A stretch of 64,000 nucleotides of DNA, taken from contig CAVTBV010000008.1 of the NCBI GenBank assembly GCA_963733095.1, positions 15,341-79,340 of the forward strand. The letters run 5' to 3'. Every line of letters begins with the position of its first letter. Positions within the stretch are counted from its first letter, which is position 1. A program made the position numbers and the translations under genes. Source of the DNA: Candidatus Bathyarchaeota archaeon. Its GTDB lineage: Archaea > Thermoproteota > Bathyarchaeia > Bathyarchaeales > Bathycorpusculaceae. Of this stretch, positions 26,430 to 36,795 are shown in pieces. The notes under the pieces are model-generated. The model ran no database searches. It saw nothing but the letters and a program-made list of their open reading frames with translations, and was not told where the DNA came from.

Positions 26430-28286
26430 GTGGCGTTAACCAGCAACTCTGATTTTTACGTCTCGATTCAAGACGCTGGCATCAATCGGCTTGTTCGGCA
26501 TGTTATGTGGAAAAGGCCTTCTCTTTTTAACTATGGAACTTCGTTTGTTGCTTCTAACCCTCATCTTCTATGCCAAAATATCGATGTCGCGCCAGAGGTT
26601 CTGCAGGCTGGAAACCCCCTTGTTACAGTTATAGATTCTTTACCGATCATTGGAACATCGTTAGCACTAAACTACGCAATACAGCTCACAAAGGGAGAAC
26701 TTGATTTTCATCCAGGAAATATCTTTACTCTTCCAAACGAATTAAATCCGCCATTAGGAAAACAGCGTCTTGGCGTTCATTTCCAAGTTTGCGCAGGCTT
26801 AGGCTGCCCCCCAGCCATTGGTCTTCCCACACCAGGCAAACCTTCTGTAAGAGTTCCCTCAATCGCCAATTTAACCAGGTTATCTGCAAACGACATATCC
26901 GTTTCTAAGACGGGCGGAATTTTTAATCCAAATGGCGGAGAAGTCGTTTTGCCATCACAACAATTAGACTGTTTTTGCCTTGACTTATACGCTACGGGGG
27001 GCTCAAAAACAACGGGGTCTGTGGGAAATCAACAGATTCAGCCATTTGTGGACGGCATAGACATCGTAGATATCGAGCCAGATCCAATAGAAAACATGAT
27101 AGAATGCTACGCACTACTTGCTTTGAACCAAGGAATCCTCCCAAGTATCGGTCAGCTTATTTCAAAATTCGCCTTTAACAATCCACTCCCGCCAGAATTG
27201 GGGACCCTTATTTTTTCTGCATCAACAACTGTTCCTAATAATCCCGCGATTGAAGACAATCAACTCAAAGCCTTCATCAATTTAGACAACATAGTCCTTA
27301 ACCTCAACATTCCCCCAACGATTTGCCAATCAAGCGGAGGGGGAAGCGGGGGTGGCGGCGGAGGCGGAGGAACCGTAACAAGGACCACTCGAAGCAGAAC
27401 ACGAACAGATACATTCGATTTAACCGCAGCTATTTCTGCCAAAGCATTTGGAAAAATCTTTGGGGCAATAGTTAAAGGCTTTCACTTTTCCTGCGCTGAC
27501 CAAGGTAGTTATGGACCGTTTTCTGCGAATTACGATGTAGAGGCACATCTAGAAGGCGGATCAATTCAATTGCGAAATAACGAAACCATCGAAGTCTCCG
27601 ACTTAGAAGTGAAATGGGATACTTTGAGCCTAAATCTTTGCGTCGACATTCCTGAACAATGTGTGGGCGGCGGCTGCCTTATTCCAAACCCATTTGATGG
27701 TTGCGTTCTTAGTGTGCCCAAAATATGCGTTTTCAGTGGCAACCCCGATTTCTGTTTACCGATAAATCTAAGCGGTCTGATTACTTCAGAGGTAACTTTT
27801 ACTGCTGGTTTTAGGGTTTTCTACGGCATTGGCTCAGGTGTAACAAACAGATGGCAAATTGTAATAGTGCCCGAAATGCCTATTGATCTGCAAATAATCG
27901 ACGTGGCTGATACGGTAGGTGACCTTTTCAAAAATCTTTTTGATTCAGCAATTGATGGACTATTAGGCGGTCTCCCCGATTGGGCAAAAGACTTGTTGAA
28001 GGGCATTTTTGGTTCAATCGATGACATGATCCGATTCGTTCTTGACATTCCTGACGATATAGCTGGCTGGCTTATGGATATCCTTACAAGCCTAGGGGTA
28101 TTCGACGTTTTGCTATCGGGAGTCTATGATTTCTTAGCAAACAACTTACCCGCACTCGAAATAGATGACCCCTTCAAAGCTTTAGACCAAGCCGGTCCGC
28201 TAATTCCGGTAATGGTTCCTATAGAGTTTATTGGAATTAAAATCAACTCAAACGAAATGATTATTGAAGGAGATGTGGGGAACTAA
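26430..28286 (+). CDS. Hypothetical two-domain beta-rich protein with poly-Gly linker
   Basis: 618-aa ORF, AGGAG SD, GTG start; SSGGGSGGGGGGGG linker at 27330-27371; Cys-rich patch in second half. Confidence 0.75.
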   Translation: MALTSNSDFYVSIQDAGINRLVRHVMWKRPSLFNYGTSFVASNPHLLCQNIDVAPEVLQAGNPLVTVIDSLPIIGTSLALNYAIQLTKGELDFHPGNIFTLPNELNPPLGKQRLGVHFQVCAGLGCPPAIGLPTPGKPSVRVPSIANLTRLSANDISVSKTGGIFNPNGGEVVLPSQQLDCFCLDLYATGGSKTTGSVGNQQIQPFVDGIDIVDIEPDPIENMIECYALLALNQGILPSIGQLISKFAFNNPLPPELGTLIFSASTTVPNNPAIEDNQLKAFINLDNIVLNLNIPPTICQSSGGGSGGGGGGGGTVTRTTRSRTRTDTFDLTAAISAKAFGKIFGAIVKGFHFSCADQGSYGPFSANYDVEAHLEGGSIQLRNNETIEVSDLEVKWDTLSLNLCVDIPEQCVGGGCLIPNPFDGCVLSVPKICVFSGNPDFCLPINLSGLITSEVTFTAGFRVFYGIGSGVTNRWQIVIVPEMPIDLQIIDVADTVGDLFKNLFDSAIDGLLGGLPDWAKDLLKGIFGSIDDMIRFVLDIPDDIAGWLMDILTSLGVFDVLLSGVYDFLANNLPALEIDDPFKALDQAGPLIPVMVPIEFIGIKINSNEMIIEGDVGN

Positions 28287-28288
28287 AA

Positions 28289-29059
28289 ATGAAAGCCATA
28301 CTTAATCCATTTGTTTTTTCTCAAGTAAACTTAGACAGCGCATCACTCACCATGCTGACTTCGGTCGTCCATAAGATCGCAGAGTCAGGAACATACGATG
28401 GCACAATTCAACGAGGATCAGACACGGTAGGCCGATTTAGATTGGCTGCTTCAGATTTACCACCGGAAAAATGCGCAGACGAATCCAAAAATCAAGTCAA
28501 TATCGACTTGAAAAGTTTGGATCTACCGGTAGCGGACCATATTGAAAGTCAATTGAAGAATTGTTTCCAAGTCAAAACTGGAGGATACGTCGTATTTCAT
28601 CTGTCAAATGGCGCTGGCGGCTACTCCGTCGAACTTCGAAAAACTGGAACCGAATGCGGGGGAAAAATAGTTTTTGACAGCCGAAAACTTAATGAAAACG
28701 ACTATTTTGTTGCCACACCACTACGCCCAGGAATCTACAACATCTTAAACGTGGAAACAAAGGCAAAAGCAGAGTTAATTGTTGCTTATCCAGAAATCGG
28801 AAAAATACCTAAACAACCACAAGCAACAAAAGTTGAATGCAGCCAAAACGCAATAACGCCTGGAAAAACTAAAATCAACCCAACTGAGTCCTTATTGTTT
28901 AGTTTTATGGCATCTTCAAGAATAAAAATAGAGCTAGTCAAACCAGAAGATCGCCCTCGAGTGAACACACAAAAAAAGGAAACACAGCAATCTAAAAAAC
29001 CATCGAAGAGTTTGGCTCCAAACCAGAAACCAATACGCCACCTGCGCATAAACGTCTGA
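28289..29059 (+). CDS. Hypothetical beta-rich protein
   Basis: 256-aa ORF starting 2 bp after upstream stop. Confidence 0.75.
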   Translation: MKAILNPFVFSQVNLDSASLTMLTSVVHKIAESGTYDGTIQRGSDTVGRFRLAASDLPPEKCADESKNQVNIDLKSLDLPVADHIESQLKNCFQVKTGGYVVFHLSNGAGGYSVELRKTGTECGGKIVFDSRKLNENDYFVATPLRPGIYNILNVETKAKAELIVAYPEIGKIPKQPQATKVECSQNAITPGKTKINPTESLLFSFMASSRIKIELVKPEDRPRVNTQKKETQQSKKPSKSLAPNQKPIRHLRINV

Positions 29060-29062
29060 AGC

Positions 29063-30154
29063 TTAACCACTTGGGGCTTTTCGGCCCACTTTACCTATTT
29101 CATACACAATCAAATGTGGATACTTCAGTAAAAATTTGTATAATTGAGCGTTCTCTTTTTTCAATTCAACACTTGGATCTGGCTCGTAGATATGTAATAT
29201 TGCCATTTGGTTTTCGCTGAGCGCATTGGTCATTTCGCTAAGGGTAAACCAATGGTTAGGATTATCCTTGTGCTTATGTTCTATCTTGTAACGTGGTAAA
29301 CATCCGCGAAAATGGCCTCCATTTGAGAGGGCTATTCCTTTAGCAAGTTGACCAAAAAAGGGATGCGCCTCGATTATAAAGAATCTGCCTTGGTCTTTCA
29401 AAATTCTGTTAATTTTACTCAATGCTTGGCTGAATTCTTCATGGTTATGTTCCTTTCTGGAAAAGTCAAAACTCACAATGGTGTCTATCGCAACAACATA
29501 GTCAAACTCTTTAGGACGCAAATTTTCTGCAAATTCAAGAAAATCACGATGAAAAAACTCTACGTTACTAAGGCCTAACTTCTCCTTGAGTTCCTGTGCC
29601 TTAGAAATTAAAAATTTACTTTTATCTATTCCAATTACCTGTGCTCCACGTTGGGCCAAAATGGCAGAATAAAATCCTGGTCCACATCCAAAGTCAAGGA
29701 TTTTTTTTCCAGCTACATATTCTTTAGAAAAGAAATGGGTTACAAAATTGTGTACGTAATGCTTGTAGTAGACTCTGTTTTTAGGTCGAATGTCAGAAAC
29801 ATCATCATAAAATTTCTTTTCAAACCAGTTTTCCATAATTGGTGGTTGCTCATTTTCTTCCAAAGCTTTACGAACTGCCTCGTTCATAGCTTTGTTGACT
29901 GCCTCAACGGCAATCTGATCAATGTTCTCGTCTATGCTTTTTTCGCCGATTACAGAAATTAACCATTCTTTGTACTCAGGTATCAATCTTTTTGCAGCTT
30001 CATACATTGTTGTTTGCAATTTCGCTAGAATTTCAAGATCCAAATTCGCAGCATTCAGATTCTCCTTCGAGAATAGAGCAATAATTTTCCTCTTAGAAAC
30101 AGTCTCTAGTGGCTTTTTGGAGGAAGTTTTGGGTGCTGATTTATTGTTTGACAA
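29063..30154 (-). CDS. Class I SAM-dependent methyltransferase with N-terminal precursor-like domain
   Basis: ILDFGCGPG motif I, GIDKS, FDYVV, ILKDQG; residues 39-101 align with the 168-aa protein. Confidence 0.9.
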   Translation of the reverse strand: MSNNKSAPKTSSKKPLETVSKRKIIALFSKENLNAANLDLEILAKLQTTMYEAAKRLIPEYKEWLISVIGEKSIDENIDQIAVEAVNKAMNEAVRKALEENEQPPIMENWFEKKFYDDVSDIRPKNRVYYKHYVHNFVTHFFSKEYVAGKKILDFGCGPGFYSAILAQRGAQVIGIDKSKFLISKAQELKEKLGLSNVEFFHRDFLEFAENLRPKEFDYVVAIDTIVSFDFSRKEHNHEEFSQALSKINRILKDQGRFFIIEAHPFFGQLAKGIALSNGGHFRGCLPRYKIEHKHKDNPNHWFTLSEMTNALSENQMAILHIYEPDPSVELKKENAQLYKFLLKYPHLIVYEIGKVGRKAPSG

Positions 30155-30267
30155 AACAATCGCTACTCCATTTTCATGAATTGGGAACTATTTATGTTTG
30201 TGAGGCATTGCAGATTTTAATTGAAGGAAATCCATATTGCGGATCGTACTGAAAAGTTCAGTAATGT

Positions 30268-31848
30268 TTAGTAAAACGGAACAATTATTTTTAAGGGATT
30301 ATTTCTGGCTGTTTTTAACTTTCTTAGTCGTGCCCAGACTGAAGTTAAGATTTCATAACGATTACTCTCTGGTCTGGGTGAATACACATAACTGTGGTTT
30401 AAGCCCATATTTCGCCTGATTGCTTCAATTCCATATTTTTGTGGATTTTGAGATATTTCTGAATCATGATAGACCCCAAAACGTGAAACATGTACCTGAT
30501 CAATAAACTCATAATTCCGCTCTAAGAAATCAACAGACTGTTTGAAATCGCTTACAGTTTCTCCTGGAAAATCTACGATCATAAATGTTAGAACCCGAAT
30601 TCCGCTTCTTGCAGTATTCCGAATCACCTTCTTAGCAGTGTCCAAATCATACCCTTTTTTCATTTTCTGCAATATTCTTTGAGACCCTGATTCTATGCCA
30701 TACCACAAACCTATGCAACCTGCATTGCACATCTTTTCCAGCAACTTATTAGTCATTTCAGGGCGAACCCGAGCATTACCCATCCATTTTATTCCCATAT
30801 CTTCTTCGATTAATAAATCACAGAATGTTTCTAGCGATTTTATATTACAATTTATAAAACTGTCGTTGAAGCGAATGACAGACGTTCCATACTTTCCTTG
30901 CATACTTTTAATCTCGGATACAATGTCTTCGGGGGTTCGCATACGGCAAGTGTTACCCCATAACCGTTTTTCAACACAAAAAACACAATTCCCAACACAC
31001 CCTCTAGAGCCAACAACTGGCATTATAGGCATACCAAACTTATTCTGAGGATACTCACTCAATGGCAAATCATCATAAGAGGGAAAAGGCAAAGAATCAA
31101 GAGATTCCACTAATGGACGAGCCTCATTGGTAATGATTATATCTTCCGTGTTCCTGTAAGAGATTCCTTTGATTTCTTCAATTGACTCTAAACTACCGTC
31201 ATACGAATTCGCAAGCTCAGAAATTGTGACCTCGCCTTCACCATGAACTACTGCATTAATTTCGGGATAAAAAGAGAGAACTTCTTTCCAAGAGACGAAT
31301 GCAGGTCCACCCAACACCGTCAAGATTCTGGGCAGACGTTTCTTCAATTTACGTGCAAGAAGAATACTCCACAACAATCCAATATGACTAATCACATGAA
31401 ATCCCACAATACTTTGTTCTTTGAAAGCATGGGCAACTTCCAAAAACCAACTGTTACAAATTTTCCAAACATCAGAGACAACTTCTAACCTTAATTCTTC
31501 ATTAATCACGTGGCCGTACCCTAAATTTGAATAAGGATAACTTAATTGATCAGAGGCCTCTTTTAACATAATTTCTTCAAAAGTATCCTTGCTCTCGAAC
31601 ATAACAGAGCAAAGATGCGATTCAGGAATTTTTTCCTCTTTCACACTTACTCCACGATTGCTATGGCGTAAAATTTCTCTGGGCTTAATGCTTAATCCTT
31701 GGTGAAAAAGAGCTAAATTAAAAGATTTAATGTTCAAATCGAAGGTACTTACATTTTGATTATTTGCCTTTAGGATACCTGTCAGGTAAGGGATTGCAGG
31801 ATAAGGCACTAAGGAAGATACAGGGGGGATGCAAAAAAACACGGGCAT
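30268..31848 (-). CDS. B12-binding radical SAM enzyme (class B methyltransferase-like)
   Basis: Cobalamin-binding region (LGGP, GEGE), GSRGCVGNCVFC, GIESGSQRILQKMKKG, DFPGET. Confidence 0.9.
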   Translation of the reverse strand: MPVFFCIPPVSSLVPYPAIPYLTGILKANNQNVSTFDLNIKSFNLALFHQGLSIKPREILRHSNRGVSVKEEKIPESHLCSVMFESKDTFEEIMLKEASDQLSYPYSNLGYGHVINEELRLEVVSDVWKICNSWFLEVAHAFKEQSIVGFHVISHIGLLWSILLARKLKKRLPRILTVLGGPAFVSWKEVLSFYPEINAVVHGEGEVTISELANSYDGSLESIEEIKGISYRNTEDIIITNEARPLVESLDSLPFPSYDDLPLSEYPQNKFGMPIMPVVGSRGCVGNCVFCVEKRLWGNTCRMRTPEDIVSEIKSMQGKYGTSVIRFNDSFINCNIKSLETFCDLLIEEDMGIKWMGNARVRPEMTNKLLEKMCNAGCIGLWYGIESGSQRILQKMKKGYDLDTAKKVIRNTARSGIRVLTFMIVDFPGETVSDFKQSVDFLERNYEFIDQVHVSRFGVYHDSEISQNPQKYGIEAIRRNMGLNHSYVYSPRPESNRYEILTSVWARLRKLKTARNNPLKIIVPFY

Positions 31849-32011
31849 TTTGTAAATCCTTTAAATCATGTTTTGACGAAGCTTTCTGGTAACCCACTTT
31901 GGATAAGCGTGATGCTACATAATGAAACTAAGAATCATGATGCATTAATGTTATGACAACAACTCTTATGGTCAATTACGCCCTTTTATTTGAGGGTTGA
32001 ATTAAAGAACC

Positions 32012-32518
32012 TCAAACTCTACCTTGTTTCAAATTTTCTTTCAAAGCTTCACGAATTGCAACATTCATAGCTTTGTTAACTGCCTGAGCAACCATGTCAT
32101 CAATGTTCCTATTTGGTTGAGGACAATCGTTTCCACAAGAACTACATAAGGGCGTTGGACAATCGTTTCCACAAGAACTACATAAGGGCGTTGGACAATC
32201 GTTTCCACAAGAACTACATAAGGGCGTTGGACAATCTTCAGCCACAACTCTTTCACCAAAAGAAGAATTCACCCACTGTTTGTATTCGGGCACCGTTTTT
32301 TCCACGACTTCATGAATTGTTGATTGTAGTTTCGCATATATTTCTGGATCTATTTTTTCAATAGGGGGCATTTTTGCTAAAAGCGCATTTAGTCGTCTAC
32401 TTTGCGCCCCAGTGAGTTTACTTTTTGAAACAACGGTGGTTAATTTCTTAGAAGCTATTTTAGCGGGTTTTTTATAATTAGCTTTTGTCCTTACTTTATT
32501 CTTTGGCAAAAAAATCAC
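32012..32518 (-). CDS. Putative RiPP-like precursor with internal Cys-rich tandem cores
   Basis: Residues 96-131 are (CPTPLCSSCGND)x3 followed by CPQP; lies between two radical SAM genes. Confidence 0.75.
   Translation of the reverse strand: MIFLPKNKVRTKANYKKPAKIASKKLTTVVSKSKLTGAQSRRLNALLAKMPPIEKIDPEIYAKLQSTIHEVVEKTVPEYKQWVNSSFGERVVAEDCPTPLCSSCGNDCPTPLCSSCGNDCPTPLCSSCGNDCPQPNRNIDDMVAQAVNKAMNVAIREALKENLKQGRV
32121..32236. repeat. 36-bp perfect coding tandem repeat, 3 copies plus 8 bp
   Basis: GGACAATCGTTTCCACAAGAACTACATAAGGGCGTT at 32121, 32157, 32193, partial at 32229. Confidence 0.97.
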
Positions 32519-32658
32519 TAACTATTTATGATTTACCAATTATTTATGTTTATTGCACGGAACTGATTTAAGACTTATTTTTAAATAAGCCTGAGTCGAT
32601 TCTACACTTTTATCAAAGATCAGCGTTGTTTGTCCATAGAGCTTTCGGTAATGGAAAT

Positions 32659-34116
32659 TTAGGTTGGTTTCTTTGCTCTCTTTTTCACCCGTCTTCGCAA
32701 CTTTTTCGATTTTAGGTTTGTAGATTGCATCAGGAAATTATAAGTTAGCAAAAGTTTGAGGATTTCATTTTGAAAAGTGCAAAAATAGTTCTCTTTTATT
32801 CCAATTTTACCGGTCTTAATGTAGACATCATAGGCACAAGCTCCGCCGCAGATCCCAAGGGCAGGACAAAGCATACAATCTTTATTCTTCAGGGTGCCAA
32901 GTTCTAGCCACTCGTAAAACAATGGTTCTTCTTGAACATTCAAATCGTCTTTTACTGGAATTTGATGTTTTCCGGAAGGATAAAACGCTTGGCAAGGCCC
33001 AACAGTTCCAGCAGGTGAAAAGAATATTTGCTGACCAAATGCAGGACAATCATACACATGAAATGCTTCCTTGAAAAAATAGCTTGCTCTTCGCACATCT
33101 ATGCGATCTTCAAACATCTGAAGTTCTTTAGCTTTTAAGTATGCTCTAAAAAGATGCTGAGCTAGTTGTTTTGGGTCGGGAACTTCATATTCGGTCGGTT
33201 CCTTTAGTCTGGTTAACAAATTGAAACTTAGGCTTCTAACTCCCAATTTATGGACAAATTCAACTATTTCCTCCGCGTATTCGTAGTTCTGTTTCGTAAT
33301 TGTACATGATATCCCAACATTTACTCCAAGTTCTTTCAAGAGAGCCAACGCTTTAAGTGCTGAATAAAATGTTTCTTTTCCGCCAGTAAAAACACGGTTT
33401 TTGTCTATGCTGGCCCATCCGTCTAGTGATAAACCAACACCAACATTGTGTTGCTTGAGTTTTCTAGCCAAGTCATCTGTTAATAAACTCCCGTTAGTAA
33501 CGCAAGAAAACACGAATTTGTTTTTGGATGCTTGCTCCAGTTTTTCAATAATGTAGAAAACGATTTCGCTGTTGCTAAGTGGTTCTCCTCCATAAAATGT
33601 GACTCTGTATTCTTGAACTTGTCTTGCTGCGTTAATTAGAACTTTTATGACTTTGTCCGCCAAATCCTTTGACATTGAAATGCTCGGTCCTTCAAGAGAG
33701 TTTTCAATGAAGCAGTAACCGCATCTGAAGTTGCAGTAGTCAGTCACTAAAATGTACGACAGATTTGGCACGGGTTTTTTTCTGAGTACGCTATCTGCAA
33801 TGTTATTAAACACTTTTTCTTGATCAAAGCCGCGAGGCACTATGAATTTCAACTTAATTAGCTTCTTGACGTAGCCACTTTGGTGCCCCTTGCTTAGATC
33901 TGTTAAAACCTTAACATACTCATCATTGGACAAGTATACTTTTTTCAGAGTTAAAGAATTAAAAAGACACTTCGTCGTTTCATCTATGTTAAACAGATGG
34001 ATGAACGGCGAAAGAATTAACTGGGATGGTTCTTCACAGCTCGATTGTTTACCGGGATTACTTTTGTTCAAAAGAGCATTAACCTTCGCGACTTGTTTTT
34101 TGCTAAATTTATGCAA
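32659..34116 (-). CDS. Radical SAM/SPASM domain peptide maturase
   Basis: CNFRCGYC, YGGEPL, TNGSLL, SLDG; SPASM cysteines CPAF...GPC...CMLCPALGICGGAC...FC; N-terminal region sized like an RRE. Confidence 0.92.
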   Translation of the reverse strand: MHKFSKKQVAKVNALLNKSNPGKQSSCEEPSQLILSPFIHLFNIDETTKCLFNSLTLKKVYLSNDEYVKVLTDLSKGHQSGYVKKLIKLKFIVPRGFDQEKVFNNIADSVLRKKPVPNLSYILVTDYCNFRCGYCFIENSLEGPSISMSKDLADKVIKVLINAARQVQEYRVTFYGGEPLSNSEIVFYIIEKLEQASKNKFVFSCVTNGSLLTDDLARKLKQHNVGVGLSLDGWASIDKNRVFTGGKETFYSALKALALLKELGVNVGISCTITKQNYEYAEEIVEFVHKLGVRSLSFNLLTRLKEPTEYEVPDPKQLAQHLFRAYLKAKELQMFEDRIDVRRASYFFKEAFHVYDCPAFGQQIFFSPAGTVGPCQAFYPSGKHQIPVKDDLNVQEEPLFYEWLELGTLKNKDCMLCPALGICGGACAYDVYIKTGKIGIKENYFCTFQNEILKLLLTYNFLMQSTNLKSKKLRRRVKKRAKKPT

Positions 34117-34631: not shown

Positions 34632-35058
34632 CTATTTGGGGGGCAAACATACCGTAAAAGTTGTGCTCTTCCCTTCTTGGCTTTCAAAAGTTACTGTTCC
34701 CCCTAAACCTTCAGTCATGCGTTTAATCACTGCTAATCCGAAACCTTGACCTTTAGCTTTGGTTGTGAACATTGGCGTAAACATCTTACCTTAAATGGCT
34801 TTGATATGCCTCCTCCGGTATCCTTGACATCTATCACGACATCACTTGCTTTTTTGTAAGCCTTTATGACAATTTCACCGCCATTAGGCATCGCTTGAAC
34901 AGCGTTATTAACCAAATTGACCATAATGCGTTTTATGAAAGCAGAGTCAGTATAACCTTTTCAGCCGCAACTTCAACTTTAACGTTTACTTTAACATTTT
35001 CGGGCAAACCGTTCTTTGCCAATAAGTCTTCAACTAAGAGTTTCAGATCAACTTCTTC
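34632..35058 (-). pseudogene. Frameshifted histidine kinase HATPase_c fragment
   Basis: KNGLPENVKV..., NLVNNAVQAMPNGG, DTGGGI, GQGFGLAVIKRMTEGLGG spread over different frames. Confidence 0.85.
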
Positions 35059-35314: not shown

Positions 35315-35599
35315 CTATCGCGGAGTATTGACTGCTGTTTTTCTTTTTGATTTTTCTATTATCTCACAGATGCGGCAGGCGGCGTCATCGAGTGTCTTTT
35401 TGAGCTGCTTCATGTCCTCTTCGACTGCGTCGCGGTTTTCCAAAAGTGGGTAGACACTGAGATGGATCAAGTCGAAAGTTGCCTTAATGTCAATTTTTCC
35501 TGTTCTTTTTTGATCCATGACTGATTTCATTATTTTTTCTCTTTTGGCAATTTCCTCAATCTTTAACCTTGGTTTATCGCTACTTAGACTTCTGCTCAT
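35315..35599 (-). CDS. Small helical hypothetical protein
   Basis: ATG at 35599 overlaps upstream stop (TAATG) after GAGGTGG SD. Confidence 0.7.
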   Translation of the reverse strand: MSRSLSSDKPRLKIEEIAKREKIMKSVMDQKRTGKIDIKATFDLIHLSVYPLLENRDAVEEDMKQLKKTLDDAACRICEIIEKSKRKTAVNTPR

Positions 35600-36795
35600 T
35601 ACATTACCACCTCTATCTCTGGAATTTTCATCCCACACAGGTTTAATCCCTTAATTTTAATACCTTTTAATACCAAGCTTAGGTCAAGCTTGTCGGTGAT
35701 TGCTGAGTCAGTTGTAACTGTGCCGGATAAGTTTGAAAACTCCAAGCCGCCCTTGACCCTCATCACCATTTTGCTGACGTTGAGAGTTAATACGCCGGTT
35801 ATATGGGCTCTATCTGCGTCACCAATGAGGGTAACACCTGGTCCATACATCTGTTTTGAGGTGGATATGGTTAGAGCAGTCTTAGATTCTGCTTCAAAGG
35901 GCTGGGTAGTGACAGATGGAATTGTTACGTTTAAGGCTTTTATGTCTTTCATGGAAGCTTGAGGACTCGAAATTCCGTTTGAGTCCATTTCATCAATTGT
36001 TGTTTGGTCTGTTGCGATGTCGTTGGGTCCCGTTGGATTAGGGATTGGAAGGCACAGTCCAATGTTAATTCCAAGGGGAGTATCGATGGGGATGCTTGTA
36101 CATTTCATCTGTATGTTGTCGGCTGAAACTTGGTCTATTGTGGTTTCCTTTATCGGGTCAGCAGTCATAGAGAATGGACCGATAGAGGTTAGAGTTGAAA
36201 ACATGGAAAATTGACCAGCGCCGAACACGACGTCTCCAAGCGTATGTTTCTCCACATAAGAGTTAAAGTTGACTCCGCCCGATACGCCATAACAAAAGTC
36301 AGACCAACAGAGCGGCCATGGCAAGTCAATGTTTCCCGAAAACGTTGTGCTTATGGATAATGTGATTTCTAGCTCTACGTTTTTGGCTTTGCATGATTCG
36401 TACTTGAATGTTCCGCTAAAATCTCTCAGCCGAAGGTTTGGAATGGATACTTCACCGATTTCTATCTCCGCAATCGAGAGCGGTCCCCCGATGCTGGAGG
36501 CGATTTTGGATTGGGGTATAACTGCTCGAGCTATCACCTTTTGTTCTCTTGGGCGACATCGCATTTGGGGCGGAGGGCAATCACAACCCTTTATCGGGAT
36601 TTTGGGTAAATCGAAACATACTTTTTGTGTTTCTACCTCTATTTTAGGCAAGTTTAAGCAGACTTTTTGCGTTTCCACCTTCGGCAGTGGAATGCATATT
36701 TTCCCTTCTTGCGATGCAGTAGTTGCGTTAGTTGTTTCTACGGAAGTTACTTCTTTTACATCTAAAACTTTTTTTGTTCTCGAGCTCTTGCTCAA
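35599..36795 (-). CDS. Hypothetical beta-rich protein with Cys/Pro-rich N-terminal repeats
   Basis: 398 aa; K[IV]C[ILF]xLPK[VI] three times, then GCDCPPP; Ile/Ser/Thr-rich beta pattern. Confidence 0.75.
   Translation of the reverse strand: MSKSSRTKKVLDVKEVTSVETTNATTASQEGKICIPLPKVETQKVCLNLPKIEVETQKVCFDLPKIPIKGCDCPPPQMRCRPREQKVIARAVIPQSKIASSIGGPLSIAEIEIGEVSIPNLRLRDFSGTFKYESCKAKNVELEITLSISTTFSGNIDLPWPLCWSDFCYGVSGGVNFNSYVEKHTLGDVVFGAGQFSMFSTLTSIGPFSMTADPIKETTIDQVSADNIQMKCTSIPIDTPLGINIGLCLPIPNPTGPNDIATDQTTIDEMDSNGISSPQASMKDIKALNVTIPSVTTQPFEAESKTALTISTSKQMYGPGVTLIGDADRAHITGVLTLNVSKMVMRVKGGLEFSNLSGTVTTDSAITDKLDLSLVLKGIKIKGLNLCGMKIPEIEVVM

Follow-up and report, generated by a model that had tools for sequence, protein, structure and literature searches.

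How a tailoring enzyme finds its substrate is a central question for ribosomal natural products and limits their engineering. [quoted passage not shown] A four-gene locus in a 64,000-nucleotide stretch of a Candidatus Bathyarchaeota archaeon (contig CAVTBV010000008.1; the whole stretch is referred to as the window) asks the question in a different form. On the minus strand, head to tail, it encodes a SPASM radical S-adenosylmethionine (SAM) maturase, a precursor with Cys repeats, a B12-binding radical SAM enzyme and a methyltransferase (MTase), an order kept in related loci, and the MTase begins with a copy of the precursor scaffold from which the Cys cores have gone. We regard it as virtually certain that the two sequences are paralogous and that a single old fusion joined one of them to the enzyme; this evolutionary reading is strongly supported, and the reading of the fold is plausible. 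A decayed, core-less substrate scaffold kept on an enzyme under strong selection would be a third recognition solution beside the RRE and the fusion, and a natural counterpart of engineered leader-enzyme fusions.

A precursor scaffold on the methyltransferase

The preliminary description of the locus, made from the letters alone, proposed that the MTase N-terminus is a core-less paralogue of the precursor scaffold. Both open reading frames (ORFs) were located on the minus strand where it had put them, and a script recount reproduced its manual alignment: 17 of 33 residues are identical between precursor 57-89 and MTase 39-71, 16 of 25 between precursor 138-162 and MTase 77-101, and the two blocks are separated by 48 residues in the precursor and by 5 (KSIDE) in the MTase. 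BLASTP of the whole proteins, a single comparison, gave one alignment with 48 of 151 residues identical (E = 3e-16) and a gap of 43 residues over the cores. The alignment joins both blocks to the Lys/Ser-rich N-termini, whose match had also been claimed. Together with the wide conservation of the domain, these results bear out the proposed paralogy. The elements compared are the following.

32012..32518, minus strand: precursor gene, 168 amino acids (aa) from GTG 32518, with Cys repeats
32252..32350, minus strand: leader block, precursor residues 57-89, common to MTase 39-71
32121..32236, minus strand: core repeats DCPTPLCSSCGN, 3.2 perfect 36-nucleotide (nt) tandem repeats (100% matches, score 232)
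32033..32107, minus strand: follower block, precursor residues 138-162, common to MTase 77-101
29063..30154, minus strand: MTase gene, 363 aa from TTG
29852..30154, minus strand: MTase N-domain, residues 1-101, with a K/S-rich tail, a leader-like helix, a 5-residue vestige of the core loop and a follower-like helix
29942-30040, minus strand: leader-like helix of the MTase
29852-29926, minus strand: follower-like helix of the MTase
29063..29839, minus strand: catalytic part of the MTase, a conserved cap (IME.WF..KFYDDVSDIRP...) and a class I Rossmann fold

The motif EKLDP.xYAKLQS...KT.P.Y..W is conserved at 80% or more in both precursors and MTases. In the archaeon's own genome (2.84 Mb, 16 contigs), no copies of the domain were found beyond those of the precursor and the MTase. 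A third copy on the SPASM N-terminus was considered because of a by-eye likeness of …KKQVAKVNALLNKS… to precursor …AQSRRLNALLAKM…; it was ruled out for both radical SAM enzymes, whose best BLASTP alignments with the precursor have E = 11 (SPASM) and E = 6.2 (B12). Family searches of the precursor returned chance-level matches only (Pfam 56B_RHH at E = 0.0087, below its cut-off; NCBIfam at E > 0.05), and neither database contains an NHLP or Nif11 family that matches it at E ≤ 0.1.

The 128 precursor relatives at E ≤ 0.001, of which 120 are listed, share a single layout throughout, in which a basic tail is followed by a leader, 1-5 Cys repeats and a follower. The three core repeats of the window are identical at the DNA level, and this identity, with the varying repeat number among relatives, suggests recent expansion or homogenisation of the core array.

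The preliminary description had left room for a one-off fusion, with orthologous MTases lacking the domain. The fusion is no such isolated case, since the N-domain was found in 44 of 108 MTase relatives. Those without it fall into two groups, frameshift-shortened gene calls (e.g. P0037 and P0030, gene pieces of loci L008 and L009) and proteins of 250-330 aa with unrelated N-extensions. Scanning species-representative genomes yielded 29 related loci, 28 of them titled as Candidatus Bathyarchaeota metagenome-assembled genomes (MAGs), which makes Bathyarchaeia the most likely home of the window's genome as well. An MTase of this family is present in 22 of the 29, and a precursor-like segment lies directly ahead of it in all 22; the B12 gene stands between precursor and MTase in 20 of these, and in eight another precursor gene is found immediately upstream of the MTase. 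The remaining seven loci hold precursors with no MTase within 8 kb. Nor does the domain have other credible partners: a profile of 30 precursors, run against 1.84 billion representative proteins as the preliminary description had suggested, gave 19 hits, and above 200 aa in length this MTase (P0047) is the one credible protein among them. A further candidate, P0246 (649 aa, E = 3.8e-4), was rejected as a fusion: it consists of leucine-rich repeats, and the likeness of its repeat …KKLAALLQKFPNLEKLD… to the leader is due to chance.

Several observations accompany this survey. Locus L013, a 10-kb contig titled Candidatus Sulfotelmatobacter (Acidobacteriota), is probably mis-binned, transfer being possible. 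Orphan precursors with no maturase within 8 kb occur in L007, L011, L015, L016 and L028, and several genomes have more than one precursor locus (three in one MAG, for example); the maturation enzymes presumably act on the orphans in trans. In two MAGs (L008:10291-11485 and L009:10538-11723), a frameshift splits the fused gene exactly in the decayed core linker, giving a core-less 'precursor' ORF of 115-137 aa and an MTase that begins with the follower. Further genes are also broken in these two assemblies; the split is likely an assembly error and, less probably, a real split form.

The similarity of the two genes is not confined to their coding parts. At the nucleotide level it runs ~45 nt upstream of the aligned TTG codons and includes an 11-mer that occurs twice in the window, against 0.04 occurrences expected (0 of 100 shuffles reach two):

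32541-32551, minus strand: AAACATAAATA, precursor copy, promoter-like (TATA-box-like), 31 nt upstream of the aligned TTG
30189-30199, minus strand: AAACATAAATA, MTase copy, 34 nt upstream of the MTase TTG

A related A/T-rich motif lies at equal distance upstream of both gene types in 11 other loci. From its sequence, AAACATAAATA would be an archaeal TATA-type promoter element. Because similarity and motif both extend upstream, the whole precursor gene, including its promoter, appears to have been duplicated and then fused. The alignment also bears on the start codons. The precursor TTG at 32509-32507 aligns with the MTase TTG and would give a product beginning MPKNK...; since the first TTG reads TTA in most MTase genes, both genes probably start at the second (M-[SP]-K-N-K), and TTG 32509-32507 is a more likely precursor start than GTG 32518.

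A single fusion, decay of the cores and selection

In a FastTree analysis of all 44 N-domains, including that of the window, with 110 precursors, the N-domains form a branch with support of 0.996, and the window's copy groups with P0006/P0008-type enzymes. A quick IQ-TREE analysis of 35 N-domains and 107 precursors, a set that left out nine N-domains and the window's among them, also placed the N-domains on one side of a branch (SH-aLRT 97). As the MTase N-domains thus form one clade among the precursors, the fusion happened once. A subgroup of precursors (P0114, P0121, P0123, P0126 and others) carries an extra basic C-terminal extension of ~35 residues past the follower (…SEAKMR..VKKQL…EIGKGK) and appears in the tree as a weakly supported sister of the N-domains (FastTree 0.63).

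In many orthologues, what lies between the two helices is a degenerate remnant of the core, 0-17 residues long compared with 5 in the window. The linkers can be arranged in stages, from ~17 residues with at most two Cys (DDCSNNCPTPIKDG…) through GIDYSNGSLQ, which has no Cys, to KSIDE in the window; one MTase subclade keeps DDCS[ND][ND]CPTP, about half a core repeat. Judged by sequence, the window's N-domain is the most degenerate copy.

The scaffold itself has been treated differently. Its leader-like block is nearly invariant across 36 aligned MTase orthologues, and selection was estimated by pooled NG86 on 16 MTase genes, with nonsynonymous (dN) and synonymous (dS) substitution values that are rough, coming from 120 non-independent pairs and short blocks:

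leader block of MTases: dN 0.088, dN/dS 0.25
catalytic domain of MTases: dN 0.088, dN/dS 0.14
follower block of MTases: dN 0.221, dN/dS 0.59
basic tail of MTases: dN 0.179, dN/dS 0.43

As its dN equals that of the catalytic domain, the leader-like helix is not a neutral relic. In the same 16 genes, dS reaches 0.61 in the catalytic part but only 0.35-0.42 in the N-domain, which could be due to either constraint at the mRNA 5' end or occasional gene conversion with precursor genes.

Conservation also divides the leader region into two parts. Precursors hardly vary at residues 34-51 (KLT..Q..RL...LAK.P; K34.94, T36.94, R42.95, L43.95, P51.97); the MTases have a degenerate form of this segment (R.45, L.68, Pro/Ser for Leu), and the window's MTase lacks it. 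Residues 53-87, in contrast, are conserved in both groups, at polar and hydrophobic positions alike.

The age of the fusion relative to the enzymes can be judged from the wider MTase family. Of 80 metagenome loci kept in a scan with the generic pattern D[FL]GCGPGF, only L033-L036 are family members (at least 50% identity), and gene context is at hand for L033. On this high-GC bacterial metagenome contig (L033:4760-7894), a Cys-rich precursor with (CAPPVD)x8 and a CxCxC-rich stretch is observed. The L033 SPASM enzyme aligns to residues 24-457 of 485 of the window's enzyme (30% identity, E = 9e-58), and its MTase, which the first sequence of the family alignment matches at 81%, belongs to the same family without the leader-like domain. 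Since L033 has the SPASM-MTase pair without the domain, this pairing on Cys-repeat substrates predates the fusion, and it was in the archaeal lineage that the fused scaffold arose. A general rule by which the MTase N-extension copies the neighbouring precursor was rejected, because the L033 extension has no similarity to its precursor (best E = 39; 0 of 1 loci).

Predicted fold and routes to the substrate

The preliminary description had further proposed that leader and follower form one helical domain with the cores inserted in a loop. AlphaFold2 (AF2), given the precursor alignment, returned a model with a mean predicted local distance difference test score (pLDDT) of 61.7 and a predicted template modelling score (pTM) of 0.43, in which helices are formed by residues 37-48, 58-87 (pLDDT 81-88) and 139-164 (pLDDT 82-84), and the core-bearing residues 93-136 are disordered (pLDDT <50). 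The MTase model, also made from an alignment (mean pLDDT 64.1, pTM 0.57), has only two long helices ahead of the Rossmann fold, 40-69 and 78-100, joined by eight residues and followed by a linker (99-127, pLDDT <50). Hydrophobic residues recur each 3-4 positions along both helices, at 60/61, 64, 68, 71/72, 76, 79, 82/83 and 87 in the leader and at 139, 142/143, 146/147, 150/151, 153/154 and 158/159 in the Ala-rich follower. In the best structural match, model residues 39-166 superpose on one contiguous 67-residue helical piece (65 aligned, rmsd 3.1, root-mean-square deviation), which suggests that the follower packs on the leader in the model. The modelled helices flanking a disordered core thus agree with the proposal, and its remaining element, one packed unit, is reached by inference: leader and follower would pack as an antiparallel helical hairpin with the cores in the connecting loop. 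In the MTase, the eight-residue connection between the helices implies either a hairpin or a kinked rod. Foldseek against the PDB gave 0 matches to the hairpin model at E ≤ 10, the ESM Atlas no usable match, and a wide VIA-align comparison a best Z of 6.0, with two chains at Z ≥ 5 among 48,161, values below the stated noise level for helical models; such weak matches identify no known fold.

We consider a putative hairpin-to-hairpin tethering of the MTase to its precursor to be the best candidate mechanism, and hold it tentatively, at somewhat less than an even chance. Behind this model stands a well-supported history. A precursor gene was duplicated along with a promoter-like upstream region of its own, and the copy joined the MTase in a single in-frame fusion early on in the lineage. 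Decay of the Cys cores in the loop followed, leaving orthologues with a half-repeat or a stub without Cys and the window's enzyme with five residues, the leader-like helix remaining under selection as strong as that on the catalytic domain (equal dN). In the model, the core-less hairpin of the MTase would associate with that of a genuine precursor, the probable form being a four-helix bundle, and this contact would tether the catalytic domain, on a flexible linker of ~25 residues, beside the core loop of the substrate. Recognition would thereby rest on the shared ancestry of enzyme and substrate, with no dedicated leader-binding domain. Whether a core-less substrate fossil recruits the substrate by homologous hairpins, with the shared promoter type matching the amounts of the two proteins and the product perhaps a small modified protein that retains its scaffold instead of a released peptide, is more doubtful. 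The parts are small (101 and 168 residues), and the family offers 44 natural variants that differ in core decay.

Several findings weigh against tethering. The follower is relaxed in the MTases (dN/dS 0.59), with I155 and R156 at.92 and.94 in precursors vs.39, and this counts against a symmetric like-with-like interface, because such an interface should conserve the follower better. The N-domains keep EI/HEV.E/KEWL and most neighbouring precursors KM/RDAVA/QQWV, so the two do not track each other. In addition, the window's copy has lost P58 and Y61, otherwise 98-100% and 89-98% conserved in both groups, and AF2 confidence for the MTase N-domain is modest (pLDDT 62-70). Prediction of a complex of MTase 1-105 (36-row alignment) with precursor 30-168 (30-row alignment) gave scores of 0.38, 0.40 and 0.40, with 0.36 for one unrelated control, and counts neither for nor against binding of enzyme and precursor, or the like-with-like oligomerisation that the preliminary description had proposed.

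Among the alternatives, docking by leader mimicry survives best, although we rank it below tethering and think it unlikely. Here the N-domain would bind the leader site of the SPASM enzyme, the B12 radical SAM enzyme or both, and the MTase would join the maturation complex and meet the substrate there. Polar residues of the leader helix (E54, K55, D57, P58, K63, Q65, S66, K74, T75 and P77) are conserved at 80% or more in both groups, as expected if one common partner reads precursors and MTases. The SPASM enzyme could offer a site, since its N-terminal domain of ~115 residues, preceding the radical SAM core, can be aligned to RiPP maturase families (starting at residue 36) and to a solved maturase (starting at residue 55). 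The MTase itself matches no RRE or PqqD family at E ≤ 0.1 in Pfam or NCBIfam, whose profiles often miss RREs. The SPASM domain is, however, a putative RRE only, and a mimic and the substrate would be in competition for one site. Mimicry would also not need the follower helix, which is kept in 44 of 44 N-domains, and the most precursor-specific part of the leader, 34-51, is the one that is degenerate in MTases and missing from the window's copy. Presumably the radical SAM enzymes read this lost module. With 34-51 degenerate and 53-87 conserved in both groups, the MTase seems to have kept the hairpin and lost the substrate-only part, and this split favours tethering over mimicry. The preliminary description had seen recruitment as independent of an RRE, yet the pathway overall may still rely on one through the SPASM enzyme, whose N-terminal domain can be aligned to the corresponding domains of RiPP maturases.

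A shared address tag appears less likely still. The K/S-rich tail and hairpin would bind a third component (membrane, nucleic acid, chaperone or compartment), so that precursor and enzyme end up at one location without touching each other. A basic tail is present in both proteins, with K8 and K16 conserved at 80% or more in both and a tail dN/dS of 0.43, and the same promoter-like motif on both genes suggests co-expression. Moreover, ORF clustering over the 29 loci and the window revealed no conserved protease or exporter gene within ~8 kb, nor was a protease or exporter Pfam family found among ten window neighbours, so the scaffold may stay on the mature product. On the other hand, no candidate third partner is conserved beside the module, and the domain is found nowhere else, which is unusual for a general targeting signal.

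It is improbable that the N-domain acts as a leader in cis, sitting on a leader-binding or allosteric site of its own catalytic domain and activating or gating it. Leaders appended to tailoring enzymes give constitutively active enzymes (PMC13003496), and the flexible linker 99-127 (pLDDT <50) would permit back-binding; yet the natural substrates have retained a leader and a follower of their own, the pTM of 0.57 and the low-confidence linker do not suggest a fixed cis-docked domain, and a close MTase in the bacterial cluster L033 has a different N-extension in place of the domain.

Equally poor prospects attach to a relic without a role, or to a fused precursor still modified by itself or a dimer partner where the Cys remnant persists: the DDCS[ND][ND]CPTP subclade, the strong degeneration of the window's copy and the homodimeric modification of fused precursors in borosin types I-III (PMC11285071) speak for one or the other, but the near-invariant leader block with its catalytic-like dN speaks against a relic, and self-modification is not a general role because the linker of most orthologues contains 0 or 1 Cys and that of the window no core at all.

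The module and its relation to known systems

The remaining two genes of the module encode the radical SAM enzymes.

32659..34116, minus strand: SPASM radical SAM peptide maturase, 485 aa, with NCBIfam matches to the FibroRumin maturase (9.7e-55) and PapB (2.4e-40), both below cut-off
30268..31848, minus strand: B12-binding radical SAM enzyme, 526 aa, with Pfam matches Radical_SAM (6.3e-18) and B12-binding (3.7e-4)

The SPASM enzyme is kin to the FibroRumin, PapB, CefB and TIGR04463 families and a member of none, its scores being 186.2, 138.8, 126.2 and 98.7 bits against cut-offs of 400, 340, 600 and 525; its closest solved relative is CteB (5wgg). Likewise, the B12 enzyme scores, in NCBIfam, 168 bits with ApyD (2.3e-49, cut-off 750) and 137 bits with TIGR03975 (5.9e-40, cut-off 282). 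The MTase is of class I from about residue 145 (Pfam Methyltransf_31, 1.5e-22; Methyltransf_25, 2.1e-15), and its cap is kept even in relatives without the N-domain. Clustering of all ORFs across the loci gave only precursor/MTase, SPASM and B12 as conserved families. A precursor with a recognition region and Cys cores thus adjoins a radical SAM/SPASM maturase gene, the arrangement of a RiPP-type radical SAM cluster (thioether/ranthipeptide-like), and the four genes make up a module for peptide or protein maturation in an uncultured archaeon. It adds a conserved, uncharacterised maturation module to Bathyarchaeia.

The flanking ORFs at 26430-28286 (618 aa, with a Gly-rich run), 28289-29059 (256 aa) and 35599-36795 (398 aa) have no Pfam match at E ≤ 0.01, and all three are not kept beside the module in other loci. 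At 34632-34924 (minus strand), two short ORFs in different frames (…NAVQAMPNGGEI…DTGGGI… and …GFGLAVIKRMTEGLGGTVTFES…) look, taken together, like a sensor histidine kinase at its ATP-binding end; they are probably what is left of a frameshifted or decayed kinase gene adjoining the SPASM gene.

Searching full-text literature by titles and abstract openings, with few subscription journals covered, we found no described tailoring enzyme with a domain homologous to a precursor leader, and no paper on this module in Bathyarchaeia. The closest parallels come from borosins, whose methyltransferase probably has a methylase fold different from the class I Rossmann fold. The 25 Pfam rows listed for the present MTase are class I families (Methyltransf_31/25/11) or weak unrelated matches. 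Precursor and methyltransferase form a single fused chain in borosin types I-III, where the homodimer modifies the precursor, and in OphMA the contact between enzyme and substrate depends on oligomerisation of like chains (PMC11285071). As in OphMA borosins, one polypeptide here combines a methyltransferase with precursor-derived sequence. In borosins, however, the core is present and C-terminal to the methyltransferase, whereas here the precursor-derived part is N-terminal and the core is reduced to 5 residues (0-17 in orthologues); furthermore, separate true precursors coexist with the fusion, and the module contains radical SAM enzymes. Split (type IV) borosins are alike in that a structured precursor domain, not a short leader, contacts the enzyme: the borosin binding domain of SonA mediates the SonM-SonA hetero-oligomer (PMC11285071). 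That domain is on the substrate only, whereas the same domain is found here on substrate and enzyme.

Fusions that supply the leader in cis are an engineering device (PMC13003496) in which, as here, a leader is covalently joined to a tailoring enzyme. They are man-made and meant to replace the leader of the substrate, whereas the present fusion is natural, recurs in 44 orthologues and includes the follower, and its substrates keep their leader. NHLP and Nif11 leaders are long and folded and engage enzymes by protein-protein contacts (PMC12537861). The leader described here is also long, with a predicted fold, but a C-terminal follower would complete that fold and the cores lie inside the loop; NHLP homologues stand alone, whereas this domain is part of a tailoring enzyme.

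The Crp system of Methanococcus voltae is an archaeal case. Its proteins CrpA, the substrate studied, and CrpB share an N-terminal region, the SPASM enzyme CrpC installs ranthionines, and domain-domain contacts add to RRE-leader binding in substrate engagement (PMC13692751). Both systems are archaeal, both have a repeated Cys motif in a protein of at least 100 aa beside a SPASM radical SAM enzyme, and in both two cluster proteins have a common N-terminal region. The Crp proteins that share it are both Cys-repeat proteins and neither is an enzyme (CrpB was not tested as a substrate in that study); Crp also has no follower, methyltransferase or B12 enzyme, and the window's SPASM enzyme scores 98.7 bits against the cut-off of 525 for the CrpC family TIGR04463. 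The case therefore belongs both to radical SAM peptide and protein maturation and to enzyme-precursor fusions, as a variant within each.

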